Shown here piece after piece: positions 4,829-25,719 of a stretch of 64,000 nt of DNA. Made by a program: the position numbers and the translations under genes. The notes beneath the pieces were generated by a model. The model did no database searches, was not told the origin of the DNA, and saw nothing but the letters and a program-made list of their open reading frames with translations. Every line of letters begins with the position of its first letter. Positions within the stretch are counted from its first letter, which is position 1. This stretch comes from Clostridia bacterium (lineage in GTDB: Bacteria > Bacillota > Clostridia > Oscillospirales > CAG-272): the NCBI GenBank assembly GCA_017454675.1, contig JAFTCN010000053.1, positions 4,853-68,852 of the forward strand, written 5' to 3'.

Positions 4829-4857
4829 TTGACATAGTCTCTTCTTTATGATAAAAT
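4829..4857 (+). promoter_or_regulatory. promoter of the lipoprotein-OYE-SDR-flavoprotein operon
   Basis: TTGACA (4829-4834), 17 bp, TGnTAAAAT (4852-4857). Confidence 0.75.
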
Positions 4858-12251: not shown

Positions 12252-13142
12252 TCAGCCGATATTGTGAACGTCGAGCTGCGGGAAGGGGCATTCGACTCCG
12301 AGTTTGCGGAAGCCGAGAAGCAGGTCGTGATTGAGCACGCGTGAGCCTGAATAGATGTCTTTTTCGTCGACATCGACAACGAAGCGCAGCACGACGGAAC
12401 TGTCGGCAAGCGACTGTACTCCGAGATACCGCGGAGCGCTCTTGAAGATGTCTGTTCTCACAGCGTATATCTCCTCCATGAGCTGCGGGATCCCGGCCTC
12501 GAGGGCGGCAAGATCGGTCGCATAGGGGATCGCGATATCGCTGAGGCTGCGCGAGATCCTGTCGGATCTGTTGAGTATGTTCTTCATGTCAGAGTTGTTG
12601 ACGATCTTGACGTTGTCGCCGGTGTCTGTGATGCTGGTCGTGCGGATCCCGATATTGGTGACCGTTCCTCTGAATCCGTCGACTTCCACGATATCGCCCA
12701 CGTTATACTGGTTCTCGAAGAGCATGAAAGCTCCCGTCACAACGTCGCTGATGAGGCTCTCGGCGCTGAAACCGACGACAAGAGCTACGATCCCGACGCT
12801 CGCGACGATAGTCGAGACGTTGACTCCGATGATCGACAGGCCCCAGCAGATTATCACTATGATGGCGACGTACTTGAGCAGGCTCGAGATGATAGACAGG
12901 ATCGAGCGGGCTCTGTGATTGGTCGGCCTGGGGATCTGAAGGATCAGATAAAGGCCGGTCTGGATACCGATGACAAGGGCCGCCATGACGATGAGTTTGA
13001 GTATATTCGACAGGTTGATCGTCACATTCTGGAACGACTGGGCGCTGAATACGCTTGTTAGAAAGCCGACCGGGATCAGCACCGTGAGCAGACCTGCGCA
13101 CACGATCAGCCTGATCAGCATGTTTTTCCTGTTCTTGTTCAT
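12252..13142 (-). CDS. mscS: small-conductance mechanosensitive channel (MscS family)
   Basis: TM helices, GIVALVVGFSAESLISDVVTG, YNVGDIVEV, GTVTNIGIRTT, C-terminal PFPQLDVH. Confidence 0.9.
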   Translation of the reverse strand: MNKNRKNMLIRLIVCAGLLTVLIPVGFLTSVFSAQSFQNVTINLSNILKLIVMAALVIGIQTGLYLILQIPRPTNHRARSILSIISSLLKYVAIIVIICWGLSIIGVNVSTIVASVGIVALVVGFSAESLISDVVTGAFMLFENQYNVGDIVEVDGFRGTVTNIGIRTTSITDTGDNVKIVNNSDMKNILNRSDRISRSLSDIAIPYATDLAALEAGIPQLMEEIYAVRTDIFKSAPRYLGVQSLADSSVVLRFVVDVDEKDIYSGSRVLNHDLLLGFRKLGVECPFPQLDVHNIG

Positions 13143-13211
13143 TTTTCTCTCCGTGATATAAAAATTTTTATAATTCTCATCATGATCATGACGTCGGCGC
13201 CGGCTCCTGTG

Positions 13212-14393
13212 TCAGGGCCTGTATTCGCAGCCGTCGGAAGGGATGCAGGAGACCGAATCCCCGTCGAGATATACGAGTCCCGCCTCACCGTCCCCGCCGA
13301 ATTCCCGGCATCTGTCGGACATATAGAGCGGGAGAAGTCTGAGCAGAAGATCAGAGCAGCCGAGCCGGGTCGAAAAAGCCGTTGCAGGACCGGAGGCGTC
13401 GTGAGGCAGCAGATCAGAGACGCCGATATACCGGGAGACCACGGTGCCGTCTCTGTATGTGTAGCAGAAGTTCTCCTCGAATCCGTCGAGAGCGAACCGG
13501 CGCAGCGAGCAGAAGGCAACTCCGCCTCCGTATACGAGGCCTCCGGCGGATACCGTCTTTCCGTCCTTTTCGATATAGAACCCGGACACGTAACGCGTGT
13601 CCGACGAATCGAAATTGCGGGCAAAACCGTCCTTCGAGGCGATCGCGCCGTGTCTGTATCCGAGCGATACGAGACCGTCGGCAAGCAGGTCGACGATATA
13701 CGCGTTCTTCATCCAGCAGAAATCGACGAAAGCTTCGATCCCCCGCTCTTCCGCGAAGGCGAGATATTCGTCGCTGACACGGAGAACGACCTTGCCGTCG
13801 CCCCTGAACTCAAGGCTCACATGTTCGTCGGAGCGGACGAAGGGGATGAGAGCGTCGTAGAAGGAACGCATCTGCGTGTTTCTGGCAGGGTCCCAGGTAG
13901 CGGCGTCCTCGTCGTACGATGACGACCACAGGGTCTCATAATAGGCAAAAGCCGGAGCAAGAAAAATATTTCGCCCCGGATCGGATGCCGCTTTTTCAAG
14001 AGACGAGCAGAGTTCCGCGGGAAGTACGATCTCGGTGTTCGGAGAAGAATTCAGCGAAGCGAGATTTACGGTATCCGAAAAAGAAAGAGTCGGATGGAAA
14101 AGCCGGTAGTAATATGTGGTTTTTTCGGTATAAATGTTTCGAAGCGCTTTGTATTCGGCTGTGGAGGACATGCCAGACACTCCAAGCTCGTATGTGAATA
14201 CGAGCTCAGGTGCGCAACCGACAGCCCCGTCATGTGCCTCGACCGTCTTAACGCCCTTGCCGGTCGTGAGCAGACCGCCGATGCCGATCGCGATGCCCGA
14301 GGCCCCGACGGCCGCCAGCACTATGACCGCGATCAGCCGCAGGACCGTTTTTTTGTCCCGAAAAAGCTTTTTATCTTCTTTTTTATCTTCCAT
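13212..14393 (-). CDS. ApbE-like (FAD:protein FMN transferase fold) membrane-anchored protein, motif-degenerate
   Basis: N-terminal TM; NLASLN..P...EL..L segment, VDFCWMKNAYIVDLLADGL (in place of LDLGGIAKGY..D); overall ApbE-like layout. Confidence 0.55.
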   Translation of the reverse strand: MEDKKEDKKLFRDKKTVLRLIAVIVLAAVGASGIAIGIGGLLTTGKGVKTVEAHDGAVGCAPELVFTYELGVSGMSSTAEYKALRNIYTEKTTYYYRLFHPTLSFSDTVNLASLNSSPNTEIVLPAELCSSLEKAASDPGRNIFLAPAFAYYETLWSSSYDEDAATWDPARNTQMRSFYDALIPFVRSDEHVSLEFRGDGKVVLRVSDEYLAFAEERGIEAFVDFCWMKNAYIVDLLADGLVSLGYRHGAIASKDGFARNFDSSDTRYVSGFYIEKDGKTVSAGGLVYGGGVAFCSLRRFALDGFEENFCYTYRDGTVVSRYIGVSDLLPHDASGPATAFSTRLGCSDLLLRLLPLYMSDRCREFGGDGEAGLVYLDGDSVSCIPSDGCEYRP

Positions 14394-14425
14394 TTTAAAG
14401 CCTGCCCCCCTGTCTGACGCCGTCT

Positions 14426-14449
14426 GCGGAACGGGAGTACCCGTTCCGC
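14426..14449 (-). other. GC-rich intergenic stem-loop between oppF and the apbE-like gene (possible mRNA stabiliser)
   Basis: GCGGAACGGG-agta-CCCGTTCCGC, 10-bp perfect stem, no U tract. Confidence 0.5.
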
Positions 14450-14490
14450 GGATAGCGTGTCCGGTACGTCGGAGGCCCTTTACGGTATCG

Positions 14491-15819
14491 TCAGATGACC
14501 GCGAGGAGCAGCAGGATCAGGAAAATGACCAGCAGCGCTCCCCTGAACGCCAGGCCTATGAACGAGCCCTTGCGGCAGGATCTGCGGTTGCGCATATAAT
14601 TGTGCTTGCGGAAGACCGCGGCGGCGATGAGCCCGAGTATCGGGAAAAGGAAGGCAAGGACTCCGAGCCAGGCATTGCCGGTGTCGTGGAGAGGAGTGTC
14701 GAGGATCGGTTCGTTCGAAACGTTGTAATCCGCGTCATCCTTCTCCTTTTCCTGACCGTCGGCGGGAGCGTTGACGTCCTTGATAGTGACCGGCTTGAGC
14801 GGGATGCCCGCTTCGCGGATCTTCTTGTATTCCTCTATCTCGGAGAGACTTCCGAATACATAGTGATCGTGCCCGATCGGACGGAGCTCCGGAGTCTCGC
14901 TGCTGTAGTCATGTATCGAGGGATCATAGGTAAAGAGCACCTTGTTCTTCTCAAGCAGCGGATCGGGAATCGGTATGGCCGAGATTAGCGATCTCGTGTA
15001 GGGATGGAGCGGGAAATTGAAGAGTTCCTCGGACGACGCGACCTCGACGATGTCGCCCTTGTAAATGACGCCTATCCTGTCGGAGATGAATCTGACGATC
15101 GAAAGGTCGTGGGCGATGAAGAGGTAGGTGGTACCGCGTTCCTCCTGGAACTTCTTCATCAGATTGAGCACCTGTGCTCTGATCGAAATGTCGAGCGCGG
15201 AGATCGGCTCGTCGGCGATGACGAGCTCCGGCTCCATTACCATGGCTCTCGCAAGACCGATCCTCTGGCGCTGGCCGCCCGAAAACTCGTGTGGATAGCG
15301 CGTCAGGTGCTCGGGGAGCAGGCCGACCTCGTCGATGATCTTCTCGACCTTCGCGACTCTCTCGGCCTCGTTCTTGAAGAGATGGAAGTTGTATAGTCCT
15401 TCGGAGATGATGTAATCCACCGTCGCGCGCTCGTTGAGCGAGGCGGCGGGATCCTGGAAGACCATCTGGATGTTCCTGATGACTTCCCTGTCGACCGACT
15501 TCGGGATCTTTCCCGAGATCCGTACGCCCTTGTAGTCGATCTCGCCGGCGGCGCAGGGGTTGACTCTGATTACGGCTCTGCCTATCGTGGTCTTCCCGGA
15601 GCCCGACTCTCCGACGAGCGAGAAGGTCTCGCCCCTGTAGATGTCGAACGAGGCGTTCTTTACGGCCTTGACGGCCCTGTCGCCCTTTCCGAATGTGATG
15701 TCGACATTCTTCAGCGACAGAAGTATCTCGCGGCCGTTTTCGTCGAACGGACCGTTTGCGGGGAGATGTTTGGCTTTTGAAAGATCGGCGGCGCCGTTGT
15801 GATTAAGCTGTTCGTTCAT
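14491..15819 (-). CDS. oppF: oligopeptide ABC ATP-binding protein OppF with C-terminal two-helix membrane extension
   Basis: Walker [13 protein letters not shown], signature FSGGQRQR, Walker [20 protein letters not shown]; hydrophobic C-terminal tail. Confidence 0.9.
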
Positions 15820-15834: not shown

Positions 15835-17634
15835 TCAGATATTGAAAGCTTCGATAAGCTTTTCATGGATGTTCCTGATCGCTTCGGGCTTTTCGATCTT
15901 CGGTGATCTGGGATCGAGCAGCCAGGTCTTGGCATAGTGGGTGTCGGTGATCCGGAACATCGGAGGATCGAGAAGAGTGTCGATCTTCAGGCAGTAGGGA
16001 TTTCTCGGAGCGAACGGGTCGCCAACGATAGTGTTGTAGAGGCTCGGAGGAGTACCGGTGATCGAATAGAGTTTGGTATTCCTCTTGGCAAGCTGCGGCA
16101 GCGACGAAAGCAGCGCCCAGGTGTAGGGATGACGCGGATCGAAGAAAATCTCGTTTACGTGTCCGACCTCGACGATCTGTCCGGCGTAAAGCACCGCGAC
16201 TCTGTCCGCTATGTTGGCCACGACTCCCAGATCGTGCGTGATGAATACGATGGTGTAGTTGAATTCTCTCTGAAGATCCTTGAGCAGCTTGAGTATCTGA
16301 GCCTGGATCGTGACGTCGAGAGCTGTGGTGGGCTCGTCGCAGATAAGGATCTTGGGCTGGCAGGACAGCGCGATGGCAATGACTATCCTCTGCCTCATTC
16401 CGCCGGAATACTGGAAGGGGTAATCGTCGAACCTCTTCTCCGCCTCGGGGATGCCGACCTTCTTCATAAGGATGAGAGCGCGCTCCCTGGCTTCGAATTC
16501 AGAGCACTTCTGGTGCTTCAGAATGACCGACGTGATCTGCTTTCCTATCGTGATGATGGGGTTGAGCGAGGTCATCGGGTCCTGGAAAACGGTGGCGATC
16601 TTCTTTCCTCTGATCTGGGTCCAGTCGGTCTGTTCCTTGATCTTGGCGAGGTTGAGGATGCATTCGCCGTGCAGCGTTTCTTCGGTCTCGTCGATGTACC
16701 TTACCCTGAATATTACCCTGTCGAACACCTTGTTGCGCTCGGACATATCGGACAGGTCGATGCCCGTCTTCATGGCCTCAGTGCAGCATTTTACGAGCCT
16801 GCGTCGCATGTTCGCACCGCGGAGGCCTCCGATGCGGCCGGTCGAGAGCAGTATCTCCTTCGCGAGGATGAGATTGCGCTCAGAGATGCTCTCGGGGACG
16901 GTGACATTCGCCATCTCGATGTATTTCTTACCGAGCTCGAGTCTTTTCTTCTCATACTCGGTGTTGTACGAAACGTCGCCGGCGGCCTTTGCCTTTTTCT
17001 CGGCAGCCTTTATCTTTTTCTGCGCCTCGATCTTCTTTATCTCTTCGGAGAACTTCGCGATCCTGGCGTCGGCCTCTTTAATGGCCTCTTTTTCTTTAGA
17101 GGAGTCGAGAGTGAGTTTGTGGTTGTAGACTTCGGTCTTCTGGAACAGCAGTTCCTTCAGCTGGACGTCGAACTCGGCGGATTCCTCGGGAGTGAGCTTC
17201 GCGCGGCTCTCCTTCTCTTTTTTGAGCCTGTCGAGCTCGACCCAGACCGGAGAGGCGAACTCACGGCCGTAGTTCCGGTCGAGTTCTTTTCGAATGGATT
17301 CGACGGTCTTGCGATGCTTCCTGCTGTTTGAGACGTTCGTCGTGACGAGTTCTTCGTCGTTGTAGATGATGTCGCCGCTGTCGATGAAACCGTTGCTGTC
17401 GAGCATCCCGGCGAAGGTCTTGGTGAAGACGGATTTGCCCGAGCCTGACTCGCCGACTATGGCGATCGACTCGTTCTCCATGACGTCGAGCGAGATGCCG
17501 CGTATAGCGGTCAGCACTCTGCCTCTGACGTGGAATTTGACTACAAGATCCCTGACCGAAAGGAGCACCTTCTCCTTTTTGTCAACAGTGTTTTCAGTGA
17601 CGGCGTTCATGCCTGCGTCTTTGTATTCAGCCAT
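15835..17634 (-). CDS. oppD: oligopeptide ABC ATP-binding protein OppD with large charged insertion
   Basis: GESGSGKS, FQDPMTSLNP, YPFQYSGGMRQR, ICDEPTTALD, PRHPYTWALL; ATG at 17634 after GAGGTG. Confidence 0.9.
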   Translation of the reverse strand: MAEYKDAGMNAVTENTVDKKEKVLLSVRDLVVKFHVRGRVLTAIRGISLDVMENESIAIVGESGSGKSVFTKTFAGMLDSNGFIDSGDIIYNDEELVTTNVSNSRKHRKTVESIRKELDRNYGREFASPVWVELDRLKKEKESRAKLTPEESAEFDVQLKELLFQKTEVYNHKLTLDSSKEKEAIKEADARIAKFSEEIKKIEAQKKIKAAEKKAKAAGDVSYNTEYEKKRLELGKKYIEMANVTVPESISERNLILAKEILLSTGRIGGLRGANMRRRLVKCCTEAMKTGIDLSDMSERNKVFDRVIFRVRYIDETEETLHGECILNLAKIKEQTDWTQIRGKKIATVFQDPMTSLNPIITIGKQITSVILKHQKCSEFEARERALILMKKVGIPEAEKRFDDYPFQYSGGMRQRIVIAIALSCQPKILICDEPTTALDVTIQAQILKLLKDLQREFNYTIVFITHDLGVVANIADRVAVLYAGQIVEVGHVNEIFFDPRHPYTWALLSSLPQLAKRNTKLYSITGTPPSLYNTIVGDPFAPRNPYCLKIDTLLDPPMFRITDTHYAKTWLLDPRSPKIEKPEAIRNIHEKLIEAFNI

Positions 17635-17642
17635 GCCGCACC

Positions 17643-18644
17643 TCACATATGTGTTCTCGGGTCGGAGGCGTCACCGAGGTTCTGTCCCACGACGTAGAGA
17701 ACTATCGTAATGATCGAAGCGATCGCGACCGGAGCCCAGAATTCGAGCTGCATACCGGGCGTGAACATAGAGGGCTGCGCGGTACCGATGAGTTTGCCGA
17801 GCGAAATATCGGACATCGTAAGTCCGATGTAGCTGAGGAATACTTCATATGAAATATATGAAGGGATCTCTGTGGCGGCGAGAGTTACGATGACCGACAC
17901 CATGAAGGGCAGTATGTTCTTCATGGCTATACGGAAGATCGATGTCCCGAGGCAGCGCGATGCCAGATTGTACTCACGGTCGCGGATTATTACGACCTGG
18001 GTCCTGATAAAATACGCGATGCCGAGCCAGCCGGTGACAGTCAGAGCGAAGACCAGCGACCAGAAACTGGCCGAGAGCAGCATGACTATGACCGAGATGA
18101 GGAGTATGTACGGCACATTGCCGATGATATTGTAGACCTCCTGCATGATGAGGTCGAACCGCTTGGAGAATCCCCAGACCGCGCCGAGCACGACGCCGAT
18201 GGCCATATTGATTATGGCACAGATGAAGGCGAGCGAAAGCGAGATCCGGGAACCGGTCCAGATGGCGTCAAACGTGGATTCGCCGACGCCGCCCGAGCCG
18301 AGTATCCAGTGGATCTTCGCGTCGTCCGGATGGAGCTCCATCGCCTTTTCGGGAGTGAGATGCTTTCCGCCCTCGGTCAGGACGCTCGAGAAGCGGTCGT
18401 AATTTGAGAACATGGGATAAATGTAGGCAAATACCACGATAACAGCAAGCAGGCCGAGTATAACGATATTGATCTTCTTTCTGAAGAAGACTCTGAACAC
18501 AGAATGCCAGTAGCTGTATCTGGGTGCCGTGATCTTTTCTGCCGCGAGTTTGTCGCTTTCGACTCTGCTGAAGAGTTCCTCTTCGGGAATTCCGAGAGAC
18601 GAGAGGTCCTGAAGTTTTTCAGTTTCGGTCGTATTTCCGTTCAT
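17643..18644 (-). CDS. oppC: oligopeptide ABC permease OppC (AmiD-like)
   Basis: YSYWHSVFRVF N-terminus, multiple TM helices, EAA loop REYNLASRCLG, GQNLGDASDPRTH. Confidence 0.9.
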   Translation of the reverse strand: MNGNTTETEKLQDLSSLGIPEEELFSRVESDKLAAEKITAPRYSYWHSVFRVFFRKKINIVILGLLAVIVVFAYIYPMFSNYDRFSSVLTEGGKHLTPEKAMELHPDDAKIHWILGSGGVGESTFDAIWTGSRISLSLAFICAIINMAIGVVLGAVWGFSKRFDLIMQEVYNIIGNVPYILLISVIVMLLSASFWSLVFALTVTGWLGIAYFIRTQVVIIRDREYNLASRCLGTSIFRIAMKNILPFMVSVIVTLAATEIPSYISYEVFLSYIGLTMSDISLGKLIGTAQPSMFTPGMQLEFWAPVAIASIITIVLYVVGQNLGDASDPRTHM

Positions 18645-18650
18645 TTCAGG

Positions 18651-20291
18651 TCACCTCGCTTTGCTTGTGAATGAGATACGCGGATCGACGGCTCCCATGA
18701 GAATGTCGCCGAGGATAAGCGAAACGATCGAGAGCAGCGAATAGAACAGTGTAAGTCCGACGATGACTCCGTTGTCGTTTGCGTTGATGGCGTTGGTCAG
18801 CAGGTTCCCCGTGCCGGGAACCAGGTACACACGCTCGGTGATGATGCCTCCGACGAGAGATCCGAGAACGCTGCCGGGAATGCCGTGTATGATCGGGATC
18901 GCGGCGTTTTTAAGGATATGCTTCGTGAAGATCTCACCTTCTGAAAGACCGCCCGACCTCGCGAACCTTACGTAATCGGAGTTCATCTGGTCTATCATGT
19001 ATCTGCGCAGCCATTTCATAAGTCCTGCGATCGACGGCAGAGACAGCGAAACGATCGGAAGGACATACATCTTCCAGCTCTCGTTGTTGACGTCGAGCGT
19101 GCTCGGCAGTCCGATGCTCCGCCCTATCGCCTGAAACATGAAGATATATGCCAGAGACGGCACGGCTATGATGAATATCACGTAGATAGTGCCGAGATTG
19201 TCGATCACCGTATCCTTTTTCTTTGCTATCAGTATCCCGAGCGGAACGCCGAGAAAATAAGATATGACGGTGGATATGATGCCTATGACGAACGAGAATC
19301 CTATCTTGGATTTGCTCGAGAGCCGGAGGTCGGTATTGGTGTAATCGTCGGTATAGCGTTCAATGGCGATCGGGTTCAGCTCCCTGGAGTTCTCCTGATA
19401 GGTGGCTGAGTGGAGGTCGTCGGCGCTGATCTCGGAGAAACCGGTCGGATAGTATGTGAACGCTTTGACCTGAGCGCCCTGCGAGACCGTCATAGTCTTG
19501 AAGACGTCGACGTCCTTGTTGACCGAATAGGAGGTACCCATACGGATGTTCAGGAGATTCTGATGGATGAACGGGAATCTGTTGTCGCAATAGACCAGAT
19601 ACTTGTGAAGAGTTCCGTTTCCGGTGATGGCGGGAGAGAATTTCACTTTCCCGTCGGGACCGGTATATGCAGGATCGTGAAGAGTAAACGAAAGCTTCCT
19701 CTCCCCGATATCAATTTCGGAGTTTACATAGTGGATGTTGTCCACCCAGAAGATGCGCGTGAAATATTTGAACATGCGGCTGATCAGAGGCACGTCTTTA
19801 TAGGCAAACAGTACCTGCTTGCCTCCGTTTGCCAGCTGCTGTGTTTTTGCCGAGTAGTAGTCGGCGTTAAGGCGCACGATCGTATATCCCTTCGACTGAT
19901 AGGCGTCAGCGAATTTACGGATGTATTCGGAAGCCTTCGGACTGTCGTCGGGAGCGAAGATATCGACAAATCTCTCTCCGTTTTTAACGGTCACCTTTGC
20001 TGTCGGAGCGATCTCGACGGCGGAAGCGCGTTCCTCCTCTGTGATCTCACCCGATCTTGTCAGCGACGCAAGGTAATCGTTGTATGTGACGTAATCGAGA
20101 TAGCCGTATTTTTCCCACTGTTCGTATTTGTAGGTCGTCCTGACGTTGCTGGATTTTTTGCTGAAAAGCGGGTCGCTGCCGAAGATCTTTTCTCTGTCTG
20201 TCAGCGAATATATCAGCAGCATGACGATGGCGACGACTATTATCACCGAGATCAGGCCGTGCAGCAGACGTCTTAGCAAATACTTTGTCAT
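18651..20291 (-). CDS. oppB: oligopeptide ABC permease OppB (AmiC-like, large extracellular domain)
   Basis: MTKYLLRRL, WLRRYMIDQMNSDYVRFARSGGLSE, ITERVY..PG.G, VDPRI. Confidence 0.9.
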   Translation of the reverse strand: MTKYLLRRLLHGLISVIIVVAIVMLLIYSLTDREKIFGSDPLFSKKSSNVRTTYKYEQWEKYGYLDYVTYNDYLASLTRSGEITEEERASAVEIAPTAKVTVKNGERFVDIFAPDDSPKASEYIRKFADAYQSKGYTIVRLNADYYSAKTQQLANGGKQVLFAYKDVPLISRMFKYFTRIFWVDNIHYVNSEIDIGERKLSFTLHDPAYTGPDGKVKFSPAITGNGTLHKYLVYCDNRFPFIHQNLLNIRMGTSYSVNKDVDVFKTMTVSQGAQVKAFTYYPTGFSEISADDLHSATYQENSRELNPIAIERYTDDYTNTDLRLSSKSKIGFSFVIGIISTVISYFLGVPLGILIAKKKDTVIDNLGTIYVIFIIAVPSLAYIFMFQAIGRSIGLPSTLDVNNESWKMYVLPIVSLSLPSIAGLMKWLRRYMIDQMNSDYVRFARSGGLSEGEIFTKHILKNAAIPIIHGIPGSVLGSLVGGIITERVYLVPGTGNLLTNAINANDNGVIVGLTLFYSLLSIVSLILGDILMGAVDPRISFTSKAR

Positions 20292-20428: not shown

Positions 20429-22597
20429 TCAATACAGACCGATGTTCTTGGCCATGCCGCCGGCCTGCGGAAGCATGGTGTCGAGGTAGGTCTGGGGATC
20501 GCCGAAGTCAGGGCCCCAGCCGCAGACGTCGACGATGTTGTAGTTCATGGTGTCACCGGTCTCCGGATAGTAGCCGGCGTTATACCAGTTGAGAGCGTTC
20601 GAACCGCCGGTCTTTACGAGAACGACCTCGACGAGTTTGCCGAGAGAGGTCTCGATCGACTGCTTGAGAGCGTTGGCTCTGGCGGTGTAGATCTCGTTGA
20701 TGTCATAGTACGGAATCTCAAGCTTTATCGGGGTCTTCTCGGTGACGGTGATGCCCTGCTCCGCAAGCTCTTCGACAGCCTTGGCCATGTAAGCCTTCGC
20801 GTTCTCGGCATTGTACCATCCGTCAAATCCGGCAGAGGAGCCTGCGCCCTCTTCCTTGGTGGGATCCCAGACCTTGATCTTGATGCCGTCGGCATCGATC
20901 TGGTCCTGCATGATCTGTCCGTAGTAGGTTCCGGCGGCGTAGGTCTTGTCGGTGCCGTTGATCTTTACGGTCGCGGCCTCGGGAAGAGATACGAAGTTGC
21001 CGGGAGTGTAGGAGTTAACGAGCGACGTGAGCTTGAGTTCGTCGCCGGTCGTCGTGGCGTTGTAGGCGCCGCGGTCGAGAGCGGTGCAGACGGCAAGCCT
21101 GAAGTTCTGGTTGCCCATCGCGATGTTGGTACGGTTCTTCTGGTTGTCAGAGAGAGTCGTCGGAGCGATCGTGGGATCGTCGTAGTTGCCGTACTGAGCG
21201 CGGTAGAGGTTGAGGAACATCGGGTAGGAAGTCGCATCGGTGGCGGAGACGTAGGCGTACTCGTCAAAGAGTCCGTCGGCCTTGCACTTCGCGAGAGCCT
21301 GGGTGTTGAGGCCGGCGCCGGCGAATTTGCCTTCCTTGAACTTGTCGTAGCCGAATGTCGGGTTGGAACCGTCGGAGAATGTCCAGGTGATCTTCTTGAG
21401 CGTGACGGCGTCCTTGGCGTAGAACTTGTCATTGAGCTCGAAGACGATGCTGTTCTTCTCGGTGGCGGAAGTTACGAGATAAGCGCCGCAGTAAGCGATA
21501 TCGTTCGGGGTCTTGCCGTAGGTGTAAGCGTCGCTCTTGGCCTTTTCGGCAAATTCGTCAACGCCGAACACACCGCCCTTGGCAGCAAACTGGACCTCGC
21601 TCAGAGGAGCGAAGATGTTGTAGCCGAACATGGTGAGGAAGTAGGTGCAGGGGGCCTCGAGAGTATACTCAAGAGTATAATCGTCAACAGCCTTTACGCC
21701 GACCTGCGAGAAGTCGGTGATCTCCTTGCTCATGTAGGCGTCGGCATTCTTGATGATGCCGCTGACGAGGTACTCAAGTCCGCCCTGGGCGTCGAGCATG
21801 TGGTGCATGGCGGCCACGAAGGACTTGGCGGTAACGGGCTCAAGAACTCTGCCCTGAGAGTCGACCCAGTCGACGCCCTGGCGGATCTTGAAGGTGTAGG
21901 TAAGACCGTCGGCGGAAACGGTGGGCATCTCGGCGGCGAGAGCGGGCTTCAGCTCATTCTCAACATCATACTCGAGAAGTCCGGTATAGGTGTTGATGAT
22001 GGCTTCGGAGTCAGCCGAACGGTAGGTGTTGAAGGCGTCCCAGGTCTGAGGGTCAGAGGTGTAGCCGTACTCGTAGGTATCCTGGAAGGTGTAGCCCTTT
22101 CCGGTGAGGTACTTCTTGGCTTCCTCATAGTAGGTGCCGGTGCCCTTCTTGGCGTTCCAGAGAGCTTTGAGTTCGTTTCTCTCGGCAGCCTTGATCGGCT
22201 TGTCGCCCGCAACGATCAGGAGCCTGTAGTATCTGTAGGAGTCATTGCCCCACAGAACAGGCGTCGCGGTATAGGGAGCGACTTTGGAGATGGCGTAGTT
22301 GCCGCCCTTGGAAGTGGACGGGAGCATAACGCCGGATTCGAGAAGCTTTGCCTCGGCGATGGCCATGAGGGCAAATCTTTCGGCAACGGTCTTGGCTTCC
22401 TTTGCAGCCTTGTAAGCGGTATCGAACTCGCCGAGAACCTTCTCGTAGATTTCGTCGGAGATCTCAGCATGGGTCTTTCCCGCGTAAGGATCGGAAACAA
22501 TACCGCCTGCCTTCTCGGGATCGCTGCAGGCCGCGAATGACGCCGCAAGCATCACAAGCACGAGAGCGACCGAGATCAGTTTCATGAGTTTCTTCAT
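20429..22597 (-). CDS. oppA: oligopeptide-binding lipoprotein (AmiA/AliA-like), apparently circularly permuted
   Basis: Lipobox FAA-C24; GLLEYD, PALA, VSADGLTYTFKIRQG, VGVKAVDDYTLEYTL, NQNFRLA, WGPDFGDPQTYLD; strongly biased codon usage. Confidence 0.9.
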   Translation of the reverse strand: MKKLMKLISVALVLVMLAASFAACSDPEKAGGIVSDPYAGKTHAEISDEIYEKVLGEFDTAYKAAKEAKTVAERFALMAIAEAKLLESGVMLPSTSKGGNYAISKVAPYTATPVLWGNDSYRYYRLLIVAGDKPIKAAERNELKALWNAKKGTGTYYEEAKKYLTGKGYTFQDTYEYGYTSDPQTWDAFNTYRSADSEAIINTYTGLLEYDVENELKPALAAEMPTVSADGLTYTFKIRQGVDWVDSQGRVLEPVTAKSFVAAMHHMLDAQGGLEYLVSGIIKNADAYMSKEITDFSQVGVKAVDDYTLEYTLEAPCTYFLTMFGYNIFAPLSEVQFAAKGGVFGVDEFAEKAKSDAYTYGKTPNDIAYCGAYLVTSATEKNSIVFELNDKFYAKDAVTLKKITWTFSDGSNPTFGYDKFKEGKFAGAGLNTQALAKCKADGLFDEYAYVSATDATSYPMFLNLYRAQYGNYDDPTIAPTTLSDNQKNRTNIAMGNQNFRLAVCTALDRGAYNATTTGDELKLTSLVNSYTPGNFVSLPEAATVKINGTDKTYAAGTYYGQIMQDQIDADGIKIKVWDPTKEEGAGSSAGFDGWYNAENAKAYMAKAVEELAEQGITVTEKTPIKLEIPYYDINEIYTARANALKQSIETSLGKLVEVVLVKTGGSNALNWYNAGYYPETGDTMNYNIVDVCGWGPDFGDPQTYLDTMLPQAGGMAKNIGLY

Positions 22598-22640
22598 GAT
22601 TGGGTTTATTCCTCCTGAGAATAATATTGGTTTTCGAAGT

Positions 22641-22669
22641 ATTATACCTCAAACGCAACAGAATGTCAA
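22641..22669 (-). promoter_or_regulatory. promoter of the opp operon
   Basis: Minus strand TTGACA (22669-22664), 17 bp, TATAAT (22646-22641): perfect consensus. Confidence 0.85.
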
Positions 22670-22875: not shown

Positions 22876-22904
22876 TTGACAAATAACCGGAAAAAGTATA
22901 TACT
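22876..22904 (+). promoter_or_regulatory. promoter of valS
   Basis: TTGACA (22876-22881), 17 bp, TATACT (22899-22904). Confidence 0.75.
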
Positions 22905-23043
22905 ATAATCAGAAAAAAATTTATAAACGAAGCCGCCGTGTGTTTCAGGGATCCTTCCCTAACCAGGAACATGCCGGAGCGGTCCGCAGGTGCGGATCCG
23001 TGACGGTCCGCACCGAAGACGCGCGGCTGCGAAAGGAACCCGT

Positions 23044-25719
23044 ATGAACGATTCAGCACACGAGCTGCCGAAGACCTACGACCCCGCGGGATTCGAAGAC
23101 CGCATTTACGCGATGTGGATGGAAAAGGGCTACTTCACGCCCGATCCCGCCGACACGAGACCTCCCTTCTGCGTCGTCATCCCGCCTCCCAACGTGACGG
23201 GACAGCTCCACATGGGCCACGCCCTCGACGAGACCCTTCAGGACATACTCGTAAGATACAAAAGAATGAAAGGTTTCGACACCCTCTGGGTGCCGGGGAC
23301 CGACCACGCCGGCATCGCCACCCAGATCAAGGTTGAAGAACGCCTGAGAGTCGAAGAGGGACTTTCACGCTTCGACCTGGGACGCGAGGAATTCCTCCGC
23401 AGAGTCTGGGACTGGAAGGCGAAATACGGCACGAGGATCATAAGCCAGCTCCAGAAGCTCGGATCGTCGTGCGACTTCACCAGAGAAGCCTTCACGATGT
23501 CCGACAGACTTTCCGCCGCCGTAAAAAAGGTATTCGTAAAGCTTTATAACGACGGCCTTATCTACAGAGGACTCCGCATAACAAACCTCTGCCCGCACTG
23601 CAACACCGTCATTTCCGACGCCGAGGTCGACTACCGCGAGATAGAAGGCGCCTTCTGGCATATCAGATATCCCGTCAAGGGAGAGCCCGGACATTATGTG
23701 ACCGTCGCGACGACGAGGCCCGAGACTATGCTCGGCGACACCGCCGTGGCCGTCGCTCCCGGGGACGCCCGCTTCTCGGATCTCGTCGGAAAGACGCTCA
23801 TACTCCCGCTCGTAGGGCGCGAGATACCCGTCATCGAGGACGAGAACGTCGATCCCGGATTCGGCACCGGCTGCGTCAAGATCACGCCCGCCCACGACCC
23901 GAACGACTATGAGACCGGGCTCCGCCACGGACTCGAGAACATCATCGTCATAGACAACACCGCACACATCAACGAGAACGGCGGAAAATACGCCGGCCTC
24001 GACAGATTTGAGGCGAGGAAGAAGATCGTCGCAGATCTCGAGGCGGAGGGACTGCTCGTCAAGGTCGAGAAGTGCATGCACAGCGTCGGCCACTGCTACA
24101 GATGCGGCACGGTCCTCGAACCCGTCGCGTCCCGTCAGTGGTTCGTGAAGATGAAGCCGCTCGCCGAACCGGCGATCGAGTGCGTGCGCCGCGGCGATAC
24201 CTCATTTATCCCGGAGAGATTCTCGAAGAACTACTTCAACTGGATGGAGAACATCAAGGACTGGTGCATCTCAAGGCAGCTCTGGTGGGGCCACCGCATT
24301 CCCGCTTACTACTGCGGACACTGCGGCGAGGTCACGGTCTCCGAAGACGACGTCACGGTCTGCCCGAAGTGCGGCGGACACGATATCAGACAGGACGACG
24401 ACGTGCTCGACACCTGGTTCTCCTCCGCTCTGTGGCCTTTCACGACGCTCGGATGGCCCGATTCCGATGCCGACCTGAAAAAATACTATCCCACTTCCGT
24501 CCTCGTCACCGGATACGACATCATAACCTTCTGGGTCTCGAAAATGATCTTCATGGGACTGAAGTTCATGGGCGAGAAGCCGTTCTCGCACGTCTTCATC
24601 CACGGTCTTGTCCGCGACGCCGAAGGCAGAAAAATGTCAAAATCGCTCGGCAACGGCATAGACCCGCTCGAGATCATCGACAAGTACGGCGCCGACGCCC
24701 TGCGCTTCGCGCTTGCCACCGGAAACAGCCCCGGAAACGACATGCGCTTCTCCAACGAGAAGATCGAAGCGGCGAGGAATTTCGCGAACAAGCTCTGGAA
24801 CGCGTCGAGATTCGTTCGAATGAACCTGAAGGGTGACGAGGAAGGTCTTCCCTCCCCCGGCGCGATGTCGGCCGAGGACAGATGGATACTCGACCGCTTC
24901 GAACGCCTGACCGCATCGGTGACGTCGAACCTCGACAGATACGAGATAGGCATAGCCCTGTCGTCGGTATACGATTTCACCTGGGACATCTTCTGCGACT
25001 GGTACATCGAACTGTCGAAATCAAGACTCACCGGCAGGACCGGCACCGAAGCCGACAGGGACGCCGCCGCGAGAGTGCTGCTCTTCGTGCTCCGCGGGAT
25101 CCTCAAGCTGCTGCATCCGTTCATGCCGTTCATCACCGAAGAGATCTACATGTCGCTGCCGAGGCCGGCTTCCGAGCCCGAGAGCATCATGATCTCCTCT
25201 TTCCCCGAATTCGACGAAAAGCTCCTCTTCCCTGAGGATTCCGGCGACATCGAGAGGATCATAGCCGTCATCAAGGCAGTCAGGGCCCGCAGAAAAGAGA
25301 TGAACGTGCCGGCGTCGAAGAAAACGCGCATGTTCATAAAGAGCACCTTCCCCTGCTTCGGACGCCGCTCGTATCCCTTCTTCGAGCGTCTGGCTTCGGT
25401 CTCCGAGGCGGCGGACGCCGGGAGTGCGGATGAGATCGGCGGGGACGGCTTCGTCCAGATCGTCACCGATTCGGCGACCGTTTTCCTCCCGCTCGACGAG
25501 CTCGTCGACACCGAAAAGGAAAAGGCAAGGCTCACGGCCGAGACCGAGCGTCTGAAGGGAGAGATCGCGAGGGCCGAGGCAAAGCTCGCGAATCCCGGAT
25601 TCACATCGAAAGCCCCCGAAAAAGTCGTCGAGAACGAACGCGGCAAGCTTCTCAGGCTCAAAGAAACATACGCCGCGTCACTGGACGCCCTGTCAAAACT
25701 CGGACACCCAAATCACTAA
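23044..25719 (+). CDS. valS: valine--tRNA ligase
   Basis: PPPNVTGQLHMGHA (HIGH), GTDHAGIATQ, ATTRPETMLGD, WCISRQLWWGH, KMSKS, C-terminal coiled coil; ATG at 23044 after GAAAGGA. Confidence 0.98.
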   Translation: MNDSAHELPKTYDPAGFEDRIYAMWMEKGYFTPDPADTRPPFCVVIPPPNVTGQLHMGHALDETLQDILVRYKRMKGFDTLWVPGTDHAGIATQIKVEERLRVEEGLSRFDLGREEFLRRVWDWKAKYGTRIISQLQKLGSSCDFTREAFTMSDRLSAAVKKVFVKLYNDGLIYRGLRITNLCPHCNTVISDAEVDYREIEGAFWHIRYPVKGEPGHYVTVATTRPETMLGDTAVAVAPGDARFSDLVGKTLILPLVGREIPVIEDENVDPGFGTGCVKITPAHDPNDYETGLRHGLENIIVIDNTAHINENGGKYAGLDRFEARKKIVADLEAEGLLVKVEKCMHSVGHCYRCGTVLEPVASRQWFVKMKPLAEPAIECVRRGDTSFIPERFSKNYFNWMENIKDWCISRQLWWGHRIPAYYCGHCGEVTVSEDDVTVCPKCGGHDIRQDDDVLDTWFSSALWPFTTLGWPDSDADLKKYYPTSVLVTGYDIITFWVSKMIFMGLKFMGEKPFSHVFIHGLVRDAEGRKMSKSLGNGIDPLEIIDKYGADALRFALATGNSPGNDMRFSNEKIEAARNFANKLWNASRFVRMNLKGDEEGLPSPGAMSAEDRWILDRFERLTASVTSNLDRYEIGIALSSVYDFTWDIFCDWYIELSKSRLTGRTGTEADRDAAARVLLFVLRGILKLLHPFMPFITEEIYMSLPRPASEPESIMISSFPEFDEKLLFPEDSGDIERIIAVIKAVRARRKEMNVPASKKTRMFIKSTFPCFGRRSYPFFERLASVSEAADAGSADEIGGDGFVQIVTDSATVFLPLDELVDTEKEKARLTAETERLKGEIARAEAKLANPGFTSKAPEKVVENERGKLLRLKETYAASLDALSKLGHPNH

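Follow-up and report, generated by a model that had tools for sequence, protein, structure and literature searches.

The binding proteins of ATP-binding cassette (ABC) importers are textbook two-lobed receptors and common biosensor scaffolds, and their chain order is usually taken as fixed within a cluster. The nearest precedent for a changed order, and the one published case of natural permutation among ABC binding proteins to turn up in the full-text literature, is Tp0684 (TpMglB-2) of Treponema pallidum, a binding lipoprotein with a natural and conserved circular permutation for which the name 'cluster Bc' was proposed (Brautigam et al. 2016, PMC4990184). In the part of that paper drawn on here, permutation of this type is described from tethered proteins of spirochaetes and Gram-positive gut bacteria, and tethering is raised as a possible reason for it; a single topology is reported there, with no series, and the protein is a type I, cluster B sugar binder with a break point other than the one described below (PMC4990184). 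Here we describe the oppA gene of a Clostridia bacterium (Oscillospirales, CAG-272; GenBank assembly GCA_017454675.1), found at 20429-22597 on the minus strand of the window, i.e. a stretch of 64,000 nucleotides (nt) covering positions 4,853 to 68,852 of contig JAFTCN010000053.1. Its product of 722 amino acids (aa) is very probably a true homologue of the AmiA/AliA/AliB group with a circularly permuted chain, a layout that recurs in the family, and acts as the receptor of an Opp importer. No report of a permuted OppA or other family-5 (cluster C) protein was found in the full-text literature, in which most subscription journals and supplements are outside coverage; in the part available, the text on MALISAM (PMC2238938) mentions OppA and permutation in an unrelated sense. 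Newly described are the permuted AmiA/Ali clade, its break point and a series of three layouts.

The best matches of the window protein, both in sequence and in structure, are the pneumococcal AmiA, AliA, AliB, AliC and AliD (PDB 8A42, 8QLJ, 8QLH, 8QLC). With the Ali proteins it has in common the bilobed fold of three domains, the WGPD motif of the clamp, a large size and the probable lipoprotein character, together with a stretch homologous to their extra terminal helix. According to the part of Alcorlo et al. 2024 (PMC11192437) used here as the source for the Ali structures, domain I of AliD comprises residues 29-63, 191-296 and 583-617 and domain II residues 64-190, which together make up lobe 1, and domain III (297-582) is lobe 2. 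A hallmark C-terminal helix of 30 residues, alpha19 (622-652), packs on lobe 1, W498 and D501 clamp the N-terminus of the peptide, and the pocket walls of the cavity include I603 and N608; for the permease AmiC, a clamping of the binding protein by its extracellular domains is proposed in the same part (PMC11192437). In both systems the partner permease has a long extracellular region (AmiC, 498 aa; the window OppB, 546 aa). The difference lies in the order of the chain: the segment that we call the module precedes the core here, whereas it follows the core in the Ali proteins, so that the tether would lead into lobe 2, not lobe 1, with both ends of the chain on domain III. The OppA proteins of E. 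coli/Salmonella (1OLA, 3TCF), B. subtilis (8ARE) and L. monocytogenes (5KZT), as well as DppA (1DPP), have the same core fold; these canonical cluster C proteins are shorter, are without the Ali-type helix and carry their last helices and strand at the C-terminus.

The open reading frame (ORF) at 20429-22597 is intact, with 722 codons for 722 aa, an ATG at 22597 and a stop at 20429-20431. A first-pass annotation, made from the sequence letters, had already suggested a permuted chain, and its landmarks hold in the translation: the protein ends in ...WGPDFGDPQTYLDTMLPQAGGMAKNIGLY, and TYEYGYTSDPQTWD, taken for the usual N-terminal motif and placed at about residue 174, begins at residue 174. The moved segment, which had been put at nt ~22435-22148, was located correctly within a few residues, and the module is now set at residues 36-173 (nt 22079-22492). 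The parts of the chain are as follows, all on the minus strand:

22526..22597, minus strand: signal peptide and lipobox, residues 1-24 (...ASFAAC, Cys24), recognized by a hydrophobic leader and the motif
22493..22525, minus strand: short flexible tether, residues 25-35, with a predicted local distance difference test (pLDDT) score below 50 at 24-29 in the model
22199..22492, minus strand: module part M1, residues 36-133, homologue of the domain III end and the last domain I segment of AmiA/AliD
22079..22198, minus strand: module part M2 and junction, residues 134-173, with helices at 137-150 and 156-166, probable counterpart of the Ali-specific C-terminal helix alpha19, followed by the link
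20432..22078, minus strand: core, residues 174-722, with the start of domain I, domain II, the remaining domain I and most of domain III
20507..20518, minus strand: W694-G-P-D697, aligned to the WGPDY motif of AmiA, AliB and AliC

Membership in family 5 (cluster C) is indicated by the Pfam domain SBP_bac_5 (PF00496), found at residues 215-712 with 119.5 bits against a curated cut-off of 32.4. Two features of the AmiA/Ali subgroup are also present, i.e. the W-x-P-D motif, as W694-G-P-D697, and an N-terminal lipoprotein signal, as a motif read from the sequence. A hydrophobic leader ending in a lipobox cysteine is the usual mark of a lipoprotein; the protein is probably one, lipidated at Cys24, a residue kept in at least 90% of 70 aligned homologues, among which the length of the tether differs. 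In the same 70 homologues, W694 and P696 are invariant and D697 is at least 90% conserved; G98, G99, I103 and S104 in the hairpin of M1 are invariant as well. After M2, a link of the form ...YLTGKGYTFQD connects the old C-terminus with the old N-terminus, and its pattern GTG...KGYT is conserved in 10 relatives. The new C-terminus falls in a surface loop of domain III, right after the conserved ...IGLY and about 25 residues past WGPD.

The swapped order was seen when the protein was compared with all PDB sequences by phmmer, where 37 distinct sequences matched at E <=0.01 and alignments were given for three of them (AmiA, AliB and AliC). The best four matches were AmiA, AliB, AliC and AliD (E 1e-62 to 4e-57). 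In AmiA (8a42_A), query residues 174-710 correspond to chain index 15-499 (independent E-value, i-E, 3.9e-57) and residues 50-162 to 519-631 (i-E 0.03); in AliB (8qlj_A), residues 170-721 correspond to 4-501 and residues 63-149 to 523-608 (i-E 0.0022). The second stretch of AliC pairs residues 63-111 with 529-577 and is not significant alone (i-E 2.1). Because these second stretches are weak, hidden Markov models (HMMs) of the module (residues 36-168) and of the core (174-722) were built from the 70 aligned permuted homologues and run on 150 representatives listed from a search of 1.84 billion cluster representatives. In canonical relatives the module HMM matched the C-terminus, always past the core (87 bits in P0193, 79 in P0197, 66 in P0192 and 62 in P0174; P numbers denote the proteins of this set), and the swapped order is therefore taken to be real, far beyond chance. 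M1 and the canonical C-termini share the pattern ...ER(F/Y)A..A.AEA.L...V..P......GG.YA.(S/T)R..P. Judged by these profile matches, homology of the moved segment with the canonical C-terminus is not in doubt. The chain thus departs from the canonical family-5 order, with the module ahead of the core, and has the sequence attributes of a circular permutant, i.e. two homologous segments swapped, a junction between what used to be the termini, and chain ends that now fall in a loop once internal. The two swapped matches to an AmiA/AliA-type protein that the first-pass annotation had predicted were thereby obtained against AmiA and AliB, the segment does align with the AmiA C-terminus and in a non-collinear manner, and the claim that the last part of the AmiA order had moved to the front is borne out by both the PDB matches and the module HMM.

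One further family-5 (SBP_bac_5) gene is present in the genome of the window, and its canonical product (L001, 618 aa) was tried as a comparison and found too distant (phmmer, 1.8 and 2.9 bits). The stretches nevertheless stand in swapped order, with query 31-104 matching paralogue 509-576.

An AlphaFold2 model of the full protein, made with the 70-sequence alignment and compared by Foldseek and VIA-align, agrees with the above. It has a pLDDT of 89.8 and a predicted template modelling (pTM) score of 0.84, with the module at pLDDT 84-95 and the first core strand at 174-179. In M1 the model has helices at 43-66 and 71-87, a beta-hairpin at 95-104 and a loop. Model residues 171-722 overlay AmiA (8a42_A) residues 33-533 with Z 29.6 and a root-mean-square deviation of 1.7 A over 493 aligned residues, which is the three-domain, two-lobed fold as far as the core is concerned, and AmiA runs on for about 120 residues past the point where the model chain ends (AmiA residue 533). 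The Ali proteins top the structural ranking (Z 27.8-30.1, 31-35% identity over about 490 residues). All other cluster C structures listed align from about model residue 131-174 onward only, the other OppA and DppA structures reaching Z 20-26 to the core. In the model the module would occupy the place of the C-terminal part of AmiA.

The protein was further mapped onto the domain limits of AliD by means of the offsets of the PDB sequence alignments and the VIA-align overlay. By homology, residues ~43-97 correspond to the end of domain III (lobe 2), residues ~98-133 to the last segment of domain I, including the cavity-lining hairpin, and residues ~137-166 to alpha19; the stretch 131-162, which pairs with AmiA chain index 600-631, is helical in the model and internal here, not terminal. 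Both hinge crossings are retained, and W694/D697 are the probable counterpart of the Ali clamp for the peptide N-terminus. After Cys24 the chain would enter domain III (lobe 2), as opposed to domain I (lobe 1) in canonical AmiA, and both termini are predicted to lie on domain III. The idea that the lipid anchor attaches to the other lobe, put forward in the first-pass annotation, thus gains support from the mapping. The family-wide occurrence of the layout, its repeated origin and a third layout go beyond that annotation.

The best 120 homologues among 5.8 billion clusters are 57-100% identical to the window protein, have 712-855 aa and cover 95-100% of the query; together with the query, all 121 proteins have the order M1-M2-core. 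The cluster of the window protein itself has 11 member sequences. Near-complete proteins made up 97 of the 150 representatives listed, and these were divided into 65 permuted, 29 canonical, one M2-core-M1, one core-only and one N-truncated fragment, with permuted representatives reaching down to ~31-35% identity. In total, 475 near-complete proteins were examined, i.e. 414 permuted, 48 canonical, eight of the third layout, three core-only and two fragments, numbers that are biased to the permuted layout by the permuted queries used in collecting the sets and are not prevalences. Source names, where given, are Clostridia bacterium, Candidatus Avispirillum, Oscillospiraceae, Lachnospiraceae, Ruminococcaceae, Erysipelotrichaceae, Bacilli bacterium and one Treponemataceae. 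The permuted layout is the norm of a large clade, mostly of Clostridia and Bacilli/Mollicutes genomes from metagenomes.

At the genus level the gene is patchy. Of 24 further genomes in the genus, five had colinear matches, with one copy 100% identical and the remaining ones 48-57% identical, and a sixth had a partial match only (35% identical, at a contig end). No match came from the 16 genomes that represent other families of the order. Among 399 genomes drawn evenly from the class, 12 (that of the window included) matched at E <=1e-30; six of these matches were colinear, i.e. permuted, and six started at query residues 169-202 and were canonical or core-only by HMM. The identical copy, also of 722 aa, is situated in another species-level genome of the genus (G009:C92:3305-5470, L004) and could be due to recent transfer, to cross-contamination of bins or to near-identical strains.

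A third layout, M2-core-M1, was identified in P0187 (694 aa) and P0366 (740 aa), in which a lipobox is followed by M2, a YLT.KGY link, the core and M1. P0424 (722 aa, nine members) is 72% identical to P0366 and shares its order. The 90% cluster of P0187 has six members, all of 694 aa, which come from NCBI, ENA, Logan and JGI and lie on contigs of up to 132 kb. On a contig titled as an uncultured Mollicutes metagenome-assembled genome (L009), the third-layout gene is one open frame and the first gene in the same type of operon, which there encodes OppB (528 aa), OppC (329 aa), OppD (614 aa) and OppF (324 aa). A scan of the genome collection for third-layout genes gave two loci only, the other of which (L010, 26% identity over 145 residues) is irrelevant. 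The third layout is no artefact. It appears in two lineages, which in the trees are nested among permuted proteins. Since it keeps the link specific to the permuted proteins and takes its position among them, the third layout most likely arose from the permuted form by a second rotation. The OppD of this locus (12693-14534, 614 aa) has the same split ABC domain as the window OppD, described below.

Trees of the core require five layout changes (FastTree, 103 rows) or six (IQ-TREE LG+G4 quick search, 50 rows), and at least four are required by the starred branches. Good support is found for three mixed groups. P0165 (M1-M2-core) groups with P0366 (M2-core-M1) at 100% in the Shimodaira-Hasegawa-like approximate likelihood ratio test (SH-aLRT), the two being 69% identical over 537 core residues and 70% over 89 residues of M1. 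The permuted P0233 and P0244 group with the canonical P0238 inside the canonical AmiA-like clade (96% SH-aLRT; P0233 and P0238 are 56% identical in the core and 61% in M1), and their junction is without the YLTGKGYT link of the main clade. Likewise, the permuted P0173 groups with the canonical P0174 and P0197 (99% SH-aLRT; 57% in the core and 52% in M1 between P0173 and P0174). As core and module are about equally similar in such mixed pairs, the proteins are related over their whole length, which speaks for rearrangement and not for a module acquired from elsewhere. The approximately unbiased (AU) test rejects both a single split that would part the 16 canonical rows from all others (delta log-likelihood 312, p 3.9e-5) and a clade made up of the two third-layout rows (delta log-likelihood 81.5, p 8e-5). 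In these trees a single origin is rejected, and the AmiA-like family appears to have changed its layout several times, with at least one further, independent full permutation apparently inside the canonical clade.

A route by duplication and trimming was also considered for these changes and is unsupported, as neither intermediates (0 of 475 proteins) nor a tandem gene (at L009) were found. The long relatives (871-4648 aa) contain one binding domain each, fused to other domains, and none are tandem binding proteins.

The permuted substrate-binding protein (SBP) domain is also the outer part of larger proteins, e.g. P0139, P0182, P0199, P0142, P0162, P0166, P0150, P0153, P0167, P0175, P0194 and P0207. 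P0139 (1260 aa) consists of a Ser/Thr kinase, a transmembrane (TM) helix, a PT-rich linker and the SBP domain, P0182 of a TIR domain, a TM helix and the SBP domain, and P0199 of a zinc ribbon, a TM helix and the SBP domain. In other fusions, SLH, BspA-type leucine-rich repeat, Ig, PKD or dockerin domains are found ahead of or behind the SBP domain. Such proteins seem to employ an OppA-like domain as a receptor or in a wall-anchored form.

Several observations weigh against a permutation that has occurred repeatedly. The second PDB stretches are marginal when taken singly (i-E 0.03, 0.0022 and 2.1), and the place of the module in space is inferred from homology and the high pLDDT of the full model. 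When the module (residues 36-173) was folded alone with nine relatives from the loci, the model was poor (pLDDT 71.5, pTM 0.49), and nothing above Z 4.7 was seen when VIA-align was run on 47 Foldseek-ranked chains; AliC (Z 3.4, model 68-120 against residues 591-643) and AliD (Z 2.6) were at noise level, the former in the expected register. M2 is short and often undetected, 41 permuted proteins scoring as M1-core only, and in the 475 near-complete proteins the M2 HMM scored in no canonical one. The collection of the sets with permuted queries counts here as well. As to the history, the trees come from quick or FastTree searches under a site-homogeneous model, and the groups for the AU test were defined by layout, i.e. 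outside the aligned columns, and tested after the first tree had been seen. M1 was found on both sides of the core in none of the 475 proteins, leaving no duplication intermediate, and L009 has no tandem or second SBP gene next to its gene of the third layout. The weakness of the second stretches and the want of a clear structural match for the module alone would suit a protein that is no permutant, one to which an unrelated domain of 135 residues has been added at the N-terminus and whose family-5 fold has lost its C-terminal part. We regard this as very improbable, since the module HMM reaches 62-87 bits at canonical C-termini, with which M1 also shares its residue pattern, and the module comes out at pLDDT 84-95 in the full model. 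Moreover, the final domain I segment lines the cavity in AliD (I603 and N608, in the part of PMC11192437 cited above), and its loss would leave the fold incomplete. An artefact of assembly or gene calling, such as joined neighbour genes or contig ends, could be suspected in a draft genome of 87 contigs, and deserves next to no credence: the gene is a single open frame with a consensus promoter, a ribosome-binding site and a lipobox, lies at least ~20 kb from either window end, has an identical counterpart in a second genome and an 11-member cluster, and shares its order with 414 relatives.

A more serious alternative accepts one ancient permutation only and ascribes the repeated changes to tree artefacts or to recombination between permuted and canonical paralogues. 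It draws on the weak deep branches among the permuted groups (57% SH-aLRT at the split, IQ-TREE), on the site-homogeneous models and on twelve rows of unusual composition in the 103-row tree. Still, it is improbable in view of the balanced similarity of core and module in the three mixed pairs (69/70%, 56/61% and 57/52%), which leaves neither part swapped in, of the 96-100% SH-aLRT of the mixed groups, of the AU tests that reject single-split trees, and of the different junction, without YLTGKGYT, in the P0233/P0244 lineage. A circular permutation that recurs in the family, as preferred here, may on the other hand be selectively neutral, the old termini being adjacent, the break falling on a surface loop and the tether position being without functional meaning. 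To this we give an even chance. The opp operon headed by the gene is of the same type in all three layouts, the domain is anchored at one end or the other by lipid, TM helices, SLH domains and further means, and the layout changes run in more than one direction; set against this are the stable retention of the permuted layout across a clade diverging to ~31-35% identity and the conservation of the junction, observations that are compatible with neutrality too.

In the permuted chain, the last ~135 residues of the ancestral order, made up of the tail of domain III, the cavity-lining last stretch of domain I and the Ali-type terminal helix, would now stand directly behind the lipidated cysteine, and the short conserved link YLTGKGYT would tie the old C-terminus to the old N-terminus. 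Fold, hinge crossings and peptide clamp would be retained, with only the connectivity and the membrane tether altered. The protein would hang from the membrane by a short tether on lobe 2, close on oligopeptides between its lobes like the Ali proteins and dock on OppBC for delivery. The Ali-type terminal helix is expected to bring the old C-terminus beside the old N-terminus on lobe 1, where a link of about seven residues would suffice, and this proximity of the termini is most likely the reason why the family tolerates rotation. More tentatively, and in our estimate rather unlikely to hold in full, the AmiA-type proteins may constitute a natural permutation series of three layouts and at least four rearrangements, serving one kind of Opp importer throughout, in which selection acts on the tether point (on lobe 1, on lobe 2 or on the terminal helix) through its effect on how the permease meets the loaded receptor. 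If such selection exists, chain topology would be a parameter by which the function of surface-anchored ABC receptors can be tuned. In any event, sister proteins of up to 69-70% identity in different layouts are rare natural material. They bear on how permutations originate in secreted proteins, where the signal peptide has to be preserved, on the effect of folding order or tether position on the dynamics and docking of receptors, and on which sites tolerate new termini, which is useful in sensor design.

The oppA gene is the first in an oppABCDF-type operon, with four genes directly downstream on the same strand. The promoter-like element is put forward on its consensus match alone. The signals upstream of oppA and the downstream genes are:

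22641..22669, minus strand: promoter-like TTGACA-17 nt-TATAAT, 12 of 12 consensus positions
22611..22616, minus strand: ribosome-binding site AGGAGG, 13 nt upstream of the ATG, read from the sequence
18651..20291, minus strand: OppB/AmiC-like permease, 546 aa, BPD_transp_1 at 348-540 (111.7 bits)
17643..18644, minus strand: OppC/AmiD-like permease, 333 aa, OppC_N and BPD_transp_1
15835..17646, minus strand: OppD-like ATPase, 603 aa, ABC_tran in two stretches and oligo_HPY
14491..15819, minus strand: OppF-like ATPase, 442 aa, ABC_tran and oligo_HPY

Two permeases and two ATPases thus adjoin the gene, the linkage known for family-5 proteins, and the 722-aa product is accordingly annotated as the putative receptor of an ABC importer of the oligopeptide type. 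As a transporter the system is ordinary, and the interest lies in protein evolution and topology and not in a new function. In the OppB-like permease, ~300 residues precede BPD_transp_1, resembling AmiC. The OppD-like ATPase has an insertion of ~255 residues within the nucleotide-binding domain, residues 28-84 corresponding to Rv1281c 4-60 and residues 342-572 to 83-315; the insertion had no Pfam match.

Among the family annotations, the NCBIfam model NF043077 (minimal mycoplasma OppA, MMSYN1_0169) gave a partial match of 93.9 bits against a cut-off of 650, in which residues 300-565 correspond to profile positions 259-515 and ~130 profile positions are left ahead of the core. With Pfam and NCBIfam restricted to the core, the N-terminal 135 residues resemble an unknown extension and the proteins seem to be C-terminally truncated. 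In a precomputed table, PF27766.1 is assigned to permuted homologues including P0022, P0025, P0030, P0079, P0093 and P0118, and the family was not found in the Pfam copy searched; if it models the N-terminal module, the segment has already been catalogued as a domain. Lastly, a divergent promoter-like TTGACA-17-TATACT (11 of 12 positions) at 22876-22904 on the plus strand faces a 909-aa ORF at 22990-25719 (plus strand).

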